64,000 nucleotides of DNA, taken from positions 1 to 64,000 of IMG/VR virus record IMGVR_UViG_3300042698_000029; one strand, given 5' to 3'. The stretch is from a virus. This document shows, in pieces, positions 32,717-33,675 of the stretch (position 1 is its first letter; each line of letters begins with the position of its first letter). The notes beneath the pieces were generated by a model. It saw nothing but the letters and a program-made list of their open reading frames with translations, was not told the origin of the DNA and did no database searches. A program made the translations under genes and the position numbers.

Positions 32717-33196
32717 ATGAGCAGGGAAATCGGTGGTACGGATATTCCGGTGGTGCGCGGCTTCACCTATGAGGACTGCACCGGCAGTGAGACGGGACGG
32801 TGCGGGCTGTGTTCTTCGTGTGCGAGGGCGGCTTCCTCGACGGTGACGGCGATGGTGGTGGACTGGCGGTACACGCGGCGGGGCCGCAGCTTCCCCTCCT
32901 CCAATGCGGAGGAACAGCGGTATGCGGTGAACCTGTCGAAGCGGCTGCTGGCGATGCTGGGCCTGCCGGGCGGGGCGGAGCCGCTGTGCCCGGAGTGCAC
33001 GCGCGCGAAGGAGGCGAAGTGTGCGCTGTGCCTGCTGGGTGCGGGTGCGCTTGCGGGGGAAGGACCCGGGCCGACCGCTCGAAGTGAGCCCGGATCCCCC
33101 GTGCGTACGCGGGGTGATCGTAGCGTCACAGTGGCGCCGGTGAATGAAGCGGCGCGGTTTTCGCAGGAGATGGACAAGACGGCGGGTGCGGCTTAA
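32717..33196 (+). CDS. Cys-rich hypothetical protein
   Basis: CGLCSSC, CPEC, CALC; ATG 6 nt after TACCCT. Confidence 0.6.
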   Translation: MSREIGGTDIPVVRGFTYEDCTGSETGRCGLCSSCARAASSTVTAMVVDWRYTRRGRSFPSSNAEEQRYAVNLSKRLLAMLGLPGGAEPLCPECTRAKEAKCALCLLGAGALAGEGPGPTARSEPGSPVRTRGDRSVTVAPVNEAARFSQEMDKTAGAA

Positions 33197-33284
33197 TGTG
33201 GAGGCTCGGTGATCGGGACGGCTCTCGTGGGGGCCCGCCCCGGGAAAGGCCGCCTCTTCCGCACTCGTAGGGGCGGCCTTTCCT
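33171..33284 (+). ncRNA. sRNA unit A (promoter, about 80 nt RNA, terminator)
   Basis: TGGACA-N17-TAATGT; terminator GGAAAGGCCGCC/GGCGGCCTTTCC. Confidence 0.6.
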
Positions 33285-33287
33285 GTG

Positions 33288-33378
33288 TGCACATCCGGGC
33301 GGCCGGTCCGCTAGAGTGAGGCCTGTGAGTTGATCCGCGAGAGCCGTCTTTCCACCACTCGGGGGAGGCGGCTTTCGT
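33288..33378 (+). ncRNA. sRNA unit B (about 55 nt RNA)
   Basis: TGCACA-N18-TAGAGT; terminator GAGAGCCGTC/GGCGGCTTTC. Confidence 0.6.
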
Positions 33379-33381
33379 GTG

Positions 33382-33514
33382 TGCGCAGAGGATCTGTTTG
33401 CCCGGTATCCTGAGCACGTCGCATGAGAGGTCCCTCCGCGCTCTCCGAGCCTGCGCGGAGGGACCTGGTTCCGGGAGCGCCGCCCTTCCTCCAGCCGGAC
33501 GGGGCGGCGCTTTC
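33382..33514 (+). ncRNA. sRNA unit C (about 97 nt RNA)
   Basis: TGCGCA-N18-TATCCT; 14-bp hairpin 33428-33466; terminator GAGCGCCGCCC/GGGCGGCGCTTTC. Confidence 0.6.
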
Positions 33515-33517
33515 GTA

Positions 33518-33675
33518 TGGACAAGACCGGCGCAGGGCGGCTAGGTTGGTGGTGACCCGGAAACGACACCGTCCGAGCGCTTACCGGCCAGATGCCCTCT
33601 GACCGGAACCCTTCCTTTGCAGGTGCTCGAACTTCTTGTTGTAGCCCCATCCCCGCCAAGGGATGGGGCTTTCCT
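33518..33675 (+). ncRNA. sRNA unit D (about 120 nt RNA)
   Basis: TGGACA-N18-TAGGTT; terminator AGCCCCATCCC/GGGATGGGGCTTTCC. Confidence 0.65.

Follow-up and report, generated by a model that had tools for sequence, protein, structure and literature searches.

We asked what is carried by a stretch of ~500 nt that lies between two convergent genes of a large virus and that gives no sign of coding for protein. The window analyzed here is the first 64 kb (positions 1 to 64,000) of the IMG/VR record IMGVR_UViG_3300042698_000029, a complete virus genome of 153,126 bp with direct terminal repeats and 65% GC, and the gap in question (33171-33677, + strand) separates a rightward open reading frame (ORF) of 169 aa without a family (32687-33196, + strand) from a leftward ORF of 430 aa without a Pfam or PHROG family (33692-34984, - strand). 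Because a codon-position GC plot has a coding signal on the + strand to ~33050 and on the - strand from ~33690, with none between, we placed the finding in this gap. It is non-coding and holds four promoter-RNA-terminator units, A to D, and we consider it probable that these form a tandem array of independently transcribed small RNA (sRNA) genes whose products act in trans, a reading that we put forward as a well-supported prediction from comparative sequence.

Each unit begins with a predicted promoter, and the features given here all lie on the + strand. The classic footprint of a sigma-70/HrdB-type promoter is a TTGACA-like -35 element, 17-18 nt and a TAnnnT -10 element. Promoter A (33171..33199) has the -35 element TGGACA (33171-33176), a 17-nt spacer and the -10 element TAATGT (33194-33199), and it sits within the last 9 codons of the upstream ORF, such that the TA of the -10 element is the start of the stop codon. 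The predicted sRNA A (33206..33287, ~80 nt) has a free 5′ seed, CGGUGAUCGGG (33207-33217), a small hairpin and a terminator hairpin (33243-33283) followed by UUUCC. Promoter B (33288..33317; TGCACA, an 18-nt spacer and TAGAGT at 33312-33317) would drive the predicted sRNA B (33324..33380, ~55 nt), in which the free 5′ seed, (C)UGUGAGUUGAUC, leads into a terminator hairpin of 18 bp with a CU-rich 5′ arm (33336-33379). Promoter C (33382..33411) is made up of TGCGCA, which is TGTACA in relatives, an 18-nt spacer and TATCCT (33406-33411), and the predicted sRNA C (33418..33516, ~97 nt) combines an invariant free 5′ end, GUCGCAUGAGA (33418-33428), with a 14-bp hairpin (33428-33466) that presents the conserved loop CUCUCCGAGCCU and a GC-rich terminator hairpin (33472-33515) followed by TTTC. 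Promoter D (33518..33547; TGGACA, an 18-nt spacer and TAGGTT at 33542-33547) precedes the predicted sRNA D (33554..33677, ~122 nt), which has a conserved 5′ end, GACCCGGAAACGACACCGUCC, and a helix, P1, enclosing both a covarying hairpin, P2 (33585-33606, loop AUGCCCU), and an unpaired, CU-rich and invariant internal loop, ACCCUUCCUUUGCA (~33607-33620); its terminator hairpin (33643-33670) is again followed by UUUCC. Every unit closes with a GC-rich hairpin and TTTC, and each next -35 element begins 3-5 nt past the preceding terminator. An original prediction made from the letters of the window had proposed these four units, and the promoters, hairpins and close spacing were all recovered, as was the homology that it had seen between terminators A and B (45 nt, 71% identity). 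It had also noted sequence common to promoters A and D, which corresponds to an 11-mer, ATGGACAAGAC, at 33170 and 33517. We rejected ATGGACAAGAC as a shared regulatory word, the copy at 33170 being the in-frame end of the upstream ORF. A third copy in the window (6338-6350, - strand) comprises a GGAG ribosome-binding site and the start of a leftward gene (MDKT) and is not a promoter. The pattern TGGACA-N17-18-TAnnnT has two matches in the 153-kb genome, both inside the array, against 0.5 expected.

The array is not peculiar to this genome. Searching a large protein database turned up long metagenomic contigs that encode homologues of the 430-aa protein (67-87% identity); these contigs provided eight independent syntenic loci, and a DNA pattern scan added one more (L039) for a total of nine. 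At the corresponding position all nine contain a gap of 400-490 nt, which is extended in those with an additional inserted gene, and when read in the orientation of the window every one of these gaps is an array of the same kind. The first promoter is kept in 9/9 relatives, with its -35 element 100% identical and its -10 element (TAnnnT) 80% identical. Across nine sequences of promoter D the -35 element is 100% identical, the spacer 47%, the -10 element 87% and the next 6 nt 61%, and the RNA conservation sets in ~7 nt past the -10 element, with the conserved block GACCCGGAAACGA starting within one base of the same place in 8/9 sequences. For promoter C the corresponding values are 77% for the -10 element, 70% for the -35 element and 52% for the spacer.

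As a whole, the gap folds at -272 kcal/mol on the + strand (z -4.9 against shuffles) and at -232 kcal/mol on the - strand (z -3.3), and each predicted RNA folds better than its shuffles (z -3.8 to -5.2) into a free 5′ segment plus hairpins. The minimum free energy of sRNA A is -48 kcal/mol (z -3.75) with the 5′ end unpaired, sRNA B reaches -31.4 kcal/mol on the + strand (z -4.9) versus -17 on the - strand (z -1.0), and sRNA C has a z of -4.9. In seven sequences of unit C, 91% of the cells are paired compared with 43-61% when the partners are slid, and 13/31 pairs are compensatory, a value reached by 0/500 shuffles. Its hairpin varies from 12 to 17 bp among the relatives with compensatory changes at 7/12 pairs, whereas the 9-11 nt loop, CUCCGAGCCU, is conserved; its terminator has 19 bp. 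Unit C evolves fast but with compensation. The nine sequences of unit D have 87.9% of cells paired versus 42-53% when slid. P1 is 97.7% paired, with U-G to C-G changes, and both P2 and the terminator covary; the covariation involves six pairs, and the observed value is matched in 1-42 of 500 shuffles depending on the measure. The 3′ internal loop of D is unpaired over 14-15 nt, and its 14-nt CU-rich core is invariant in 9/9. The conserved G-U pairs of units C and D fit the + strand only.

What is kept and what varies within a unit is the reverse of what had been expected. The original prediction envisaged a constant scaffold with a variable seed; it is the 5′ seeds and the loops that are conserved, while the stems and terminators vary. 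The seed of sRNA A is invariant in six A-type units (CGGUGAU(C/G)GGG), and beyond this seed only the terminator is kept. Unit B keeps CCGUGrGUUGAUsG in L027, L028 and L029. The core of unit D is 83-93% identical among close relatives compared with 72-80% at the 4-fold degenerate sites of the adjacent gene, and 72-79% compared with 53-57% in the comparison with L034; since the core is more conserved than neighboring 4-fold sites, unit D is under purifying selection. ORFs that cross the units lose their frame or change in length through indels of 1-2 nt in the relatives, which have only 2-3 start codons in common. The combination found here, of promoter hexamers at a fixed spacing, an intrinsic terminator, no conserved frame and a structure maintained by compensatory changes, is that of candidate stand-alone sRNA genes.

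The number of units in the relatives ranges from one to four, in agreement with the variable unit number that the original prediction had looked to in related phages. The order A-B-C-D is found in the window, L029 and L030, the order A-C-D in L026, L031 and L039 (L032 being a partial copy), and B-C-D in L027 and L028. In L034 a different first unit (X) is followed by an A-like unit and then D, and L033 has a different first unit (X) and then a D-like unit. The distant L040 and L041, in which the neighboring protein is 45% identical, carry a single D-like unit with TGGACA-N17/18-TAGCCT or TAGAGT, an RNA with GACUUCCUCUGCA and a terminator rich in U; a promoter scan detected the promoter of L041, and that of L040 was read by eye. 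A-type units thus occur in L026, L029, L031, L039 and L034 and are absent from L027 and L028, whereas B is absent from L026, L031 and L039. In L027 and L028 a B-type RNA is instead driven by the first promoter, TGGACA-N17-TAGGGT. Because L040 and L041 retain one D-like unit at such a distance, unit D is the ancestral and fixed member, and the positions before it turn over, with A and B gained, lost or replaced. The homologous terminator-promoter junctions, together with the presence or absence of whole units, suggest that cassettes are exchanged by recombination. Overall, the core of the original prediction, of duplicated and diversifying self-contained sRNA cassettes, finds support in the promoter footprints, in conservation that begins at the predicted start and in the compensatory changes, but its picture of scaffold and seed is inverted, and its suggestions of an antitoxin and of an anti-CRISPR role, considered below, are not supported.

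Given this layout, we infer a mode of action as follows. Host RNA polymerase would read each unit from its own housekeeping-sigma (HrdB/sigma-70-like) promoter and stop at its own intrinsic terminator, yielding four independently transcribed + strand sRNAs of ~80, 55, 97 and 122 nt. Every predicted RNA combines a conserved single-stranded segment with a variable, structure-constrained body; the conserved segment lies at the 5′ end in A and B, at the 5′ end and in the hairpin loop in C, and at the 5′ end and in the CU-rich internal loop in D. The RNAs would act in trans through base pairing, which is favored by the arrangement of a free conserved 5′ end or loop, a structured body and a terminator. 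The tail of 16S rRNA that recognizes the Shine-Dalgarno sequence is CCUCCUUUCU, and because the D loop, CCUUCCUUU, resembles it we favor occlusion of purine-rich ribosome-binding sites: this invariant, anti-Shine-Dalgarno-like loop may pair with purine-rich ribosome-binding regions and block the start of translation, most likely in host mRNAs. The slots before D would hold swappable units (A, B and others), probably exchanged by recombination at the homologous terminator-promoter junctions. In its fullest form, which we find possible but rather doubtful, the locus would be a dedicated sRNA cassette slot of a family of ~150-kb actinophages, in which D, as a conserved anchor RNA, imitates the anti-Shine-Dalgarno tail of 16S rRNA and turns off one class of host mRNAs, and in which interchangeable upstream cassettes are swapped between phages at terminator-promoter junctions for RNA-level counter-defense or host takeover. 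Such a slot, if real, would be an RNA analogue of protein anti-defense islands.

Several observations weigh against an array of independently transcribed, base-pairing RNAs. The terminators have only 3-5 U, with short tracts (UUUC) in the window and up to 4-5 U in relatives, and a generic terminator scan flagged D alone. The -35 elements of promoters B (TGCACA) and C (TGCGCA) are weak, and no good -35 element for B can be read by eye in L029; some units may therefore be co-transcribed or expressed by read-through. When unit D is taken alone in the sequence of the window, the - strand folds slightly better. Exact and mismatched complements of six conserved seeds, combined with a duplex-energy scan, pointed to no outlier target in the phage genome, and perfect complements of 13 nt of the D loop were not enriched in 151 Streptomyces genomes (10 matches versus ~26 for the control). 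These target searches are weak negative evidence, because the host has not been identified and sRNA pairing is usually short and imperfect.

The absence of a base-pairing target is also what would be seen if the RNAs were protein-binding decoys or sponges, directed at a host defense nuclease, an RNA-binding protein or the ribosome, with the turnover of A, B and X reflecting an arms race. This is a serious rival, if an unlikely one. Turnover of cassettes at a fixed locus is typical of counter-defense regions, conserved loops are held on covarying stems (the C loop and the AUGCCCU loop of P2 in D), and defense-type families are encoded just upstream in relatives, namely AbiEii and a nucleotidyltransferase; yet a free 5′ seed followed by a terminator is the classic layout of a base-pairing sRNA, and the failed target searches count for little here for the reason just given. 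The stack of terminators and promoters could alternatively be a transcriptional insulator that separates the rightward operon from its convergent neighbor and also works as a linker for recombination, with the RNAs as functionless by-products. The array does lie where two genes converge, with terminator A closing off the upstream operon as well and the D hairpin facing the 430-aa gene, and the homologous junctions (45 nt, 71%) and the coming and going of whole units recall the PeSL (promoter-early stem-loop) cassettes of T4-type phages, which do the same for ORFans (PMC2839356). However, the sequence between promoter and terminator is conserved beyond the needs of insulation: units A, C and D have invariant seeds, the 14-nt D loop is likewise invariant, the C hairpin covaries around a conserved loop and D is more conserved than synonymous sites. 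PeSLs, moreover, drive protein genes and the array contains none, so that we regard an insulator as improbable.

Three further explanations fare much worse. Micro-peptides encoded by the units, with possible starts such as GTG-ATC-GGG in A and ATG-AGA in C, might be suspected because unit A of the window has GGAGG 4 nt before the GTG and the first 2-3 codons are conserved, but across the relatives the frames end after 6, 7, 12 or at least 36 codons and nothing is conserved beyond the seed, while the ORFs in C and D run through the terminators and the next promoter with no codon-position signal; we consider such peptides very unlikely. The original prediction also raised the possibility that the RNAs are antitoxins for the convergent gene, and for its 430-aa protein these could be of type I or III. 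Although the array and this gene are adjacent in nine relatives, the protein has >230 homologues in a widespread family, and many of these come from bacterial metagenome-assembled genomes; only a 43-nt gap follows the gene in L035-L037, no such units are seen there by eye in L042 and L049, and another gene intervenes in L033 and L034. There is no antisense overlap. In the type III system ToxI, near-identical short tandem repeats share one promoter next to an endoribonuclease toxin, whereas the units here differ in sequence and length, each with its own promoter, and contain no ToxI-type repeats. Since the 430-aa gene can be found elsewhere without the array, and with another gene between the two in L033 and L034, an antitoxin role is not supported and strikes us as most improbable. 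Finally, unit C had been likened to type I-E CRISPR repeats, and it or the whole array might be an RNA anti-CRISPR (Racr) that titrates Cas6e or Cascade. Several relatives have CCCCGC...GCGGGG atop the unit C stem, a motif of type I-E repeats and no more than a lead. Racrs are described as phage-encoded small RNAs with hairpins that mimic, and keep the sequence of, the host CRISPR repeat (PMC10651486); in unit C the loop and the 5′ end are retained whereas the stem sequence is not, 7/12 of its pairs covarying, and the stem has 12-17 bp and a conserved loop of 9-11 nt rather than 6-7 bp and a tetraloop. Searched at E up to 10, the window gave no match to the CRISPR-DR families, nor did seven relatives at E up to 0.5, a search that did not extend to the repeats of the host itself. 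With no CRISPR-DR match and a stem free to change in sequence, the anti-CRISPR idea is without support and, in our view, hardly credible. A cos or pac site or a replication origin, considered in view of the nearby terminase, was rejected because the direct terminal repeats that form the genome ends lie elsewhere and what is conserved here consists of promoter hexamers and of RNA helices that contain G-U pairs.

Returning to the sRNA genes, the four RNAs have no relatives among known families. No Rfam family matched the window at the gathering threshold, the best sub-threshold matches there (including CRISPR-DR, CcsR1 and sodF sRNA) reached 9.8-20.8 bits against gathering scores of 40-100, and seven relatives gave no Rfam match at E up to 0.5. 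A search of the window for tRNA and tmRNA found none. A covariance model of unit D detects a single copy in the genome (140 bits) and, with strict filters, had no match in 151 Streptomyces genomes, so that D does not look like a straightforward copy of any host sRNA in that sample. In distant Satis-like contigs the D model gives matches of 17-24 bits ~5.5 kb downstream of the terminase (+ strand; L007 13795-13888, L016 13801-13894, L010 13795-13888 and L004 13425-13520). These share the 5′ end UGACCCGGGAUUGAUCCCGACCG and the terminator and are without the CU-rich loop; they could be remote relatives or chance matches. Matches of 17-24 bits also occur in contigs that are not Satis-like, and since all of them depend mostly on the terminator and a similar 5′ end, we draw no claim from them. 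Another gene-less unit follows the capsid gene of the genome studied here (43901-44072, + strand), with TTGAAG-N18-TACAGT, a strong terminator (AAAACCCCGCC...GGCGGGGTTTTT) and, between them, a predicted RNA of ~120 nt. The RNA has a hairpin, CCAGAGUGUGCCCUCUGG, similar to the P2 hairpin of D (CCAGAUGCCCUCUGA), and a CU-rich stretch, UUUCUCCUUC, is present; the D model does not match this unit at E up to 1.

The surrounding genes are those of a large actinophage-like virus. Beyond the 430-aa gene lie a ubiquitin-like gene, the terminase and then structural genes. At 53% identity, the large terminase (35370-37781) matches its counterparts in Kela, JustBecause and Satis, which are Streptomyces phages of 185 kb, and the genome also encodes a capsid protein, a tape-measure protein and a family A DNA polymerase. 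Searches of cultured phages by blastn and tblastn with the gap and both flanking ORFs gave no match, nor did scans of IMG/VR with both flanking proteins and the unit D pattern; a terminase search of IMG/VR returned only short close relatives without the upstream region. The unit D pattern found one new contig in a metagenome scan, L039, and no match in a collection of prokaryote genomes. The 430-aa protein belongs to a widespread uncharacterized family whose >230 homologues (35-87% identity) come from both phage contigs and bacterial genomes or metagenome-assembled genomes, the bacterial sources including Streptomyces, Acidobacteriota, Verrucomicrobiota, Meiothermus and Calidithermus. In L033 (3470-3760) and L034 (5493-5810; both on the + strand of the locus) the extra gene between the 430-aa gene and the array encodes 96-105 aa and has its own strong GC hairpins on either side. 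Close relatives differ in the accessory region that immediately precedes the array, with AbiEii (PF08843) in L026 (6671-7303) and a small nucleotidyltransferase (PF01909/PF18765) in L027 (6318-6629). A gene of 72-80 aa just upstream of the large terminase has a precomputed Pfam match to ubiquitin (PF00240) in six related loci, and a faint one in L032 would make seven (window 35095-35319, + strand; L026 3659-3880; L027 3667-3885; L029 1499-1723). These matches point to a ubiquitin-like protein whose gene keeps its position among the relatives and diverges in orientation from the 430-aa gene.

Most of the sRNAs known to be encoded by phages come from enterobacterial prophages. Both phage sRNAs and abundant non-coding RNAs of actinophages have been described (PMC12197685, PMC5712189), and a review of phage sRNAs makes no mention of Streptomyces, actinophages or tandem arrays (PMC12197685). 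What the present locus adds is four predicted RNA families without database relatives, with structures and promoters validated by comparison; an anchor RNA, unit D, whose anti-Shine-Dalgarno-like loop can be traced across deep divergence; and the gain, loss and replacement of candidate sRNA genes as cassettes in a family of large high-GC phages. To our knowledge high-GC actinobacteria lack Hfq, and a D loop that targets ribosome-binding sites would, if confirmed, be a compact device for host takeover in these bacteria. The compact terminators, like the promoters of host type, could also find use as small parts for gene expression in Streptomyces.

Among known systems, the closest in appearance are the sibling or tandem sRNA families LhrC1-4 of Listeria and CcsR1-4 of Rhodobacter (the "cuckoo" RNAs, Rfam RF02791), in which CU-rich anti-Shine-Dalgarno-like motifs in loops or terminator arms pair with ribosome-binding sites and, for LhrC1-4, each gene has its own promoter and terminator. 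The likeness lies in several short sRNA genes arranged head to tail and in the CU-rich motifs. The array is not a member of the CcsR1 family (13.4 bits against a gathering score of 65.3), instead of copies of one unit it contains the related A and B together with C and D, which are distinct families, and it is phage-borne with a composition that varies between close relatives. The cluster A mycobacteriophages L5, D29 and StarStuff produce abundant small non-coding RNAs from single regions of ~500 bp, as established by RNA-seq and Northern blots (PMC5712189). Like the predicted RNAs described here, these are intergenic actinophage RNAs with host-type promoters and no known function; the array differs in being predicted from sequence comparison alone and in comprising 3-4 separate units, each of which runs from a promoter to a terminator. 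In T4-type phages, the PeSL cassettes join a host-sigma promoter to a terminator stem-loop and are repeated in a plastic region, where they flank protein-coding ORFans, carry a Shine-Dalgarno sequence and start codon, and are described as exchanging the ORFans (PMC2839356). The fusion of promoter and terminator stem-loop is common to both, and in the array too the homologous junctions could mediate the insertion and deletion of units, but no ORF follows any of the four promoters and the cargo is a conserved, structured and putatively non-coding RNA. The array belongs to a high-GC actinobacterial setting and, with no sequence relation to the PeSLs, is not a member of that class but follows a similar cassette logic.

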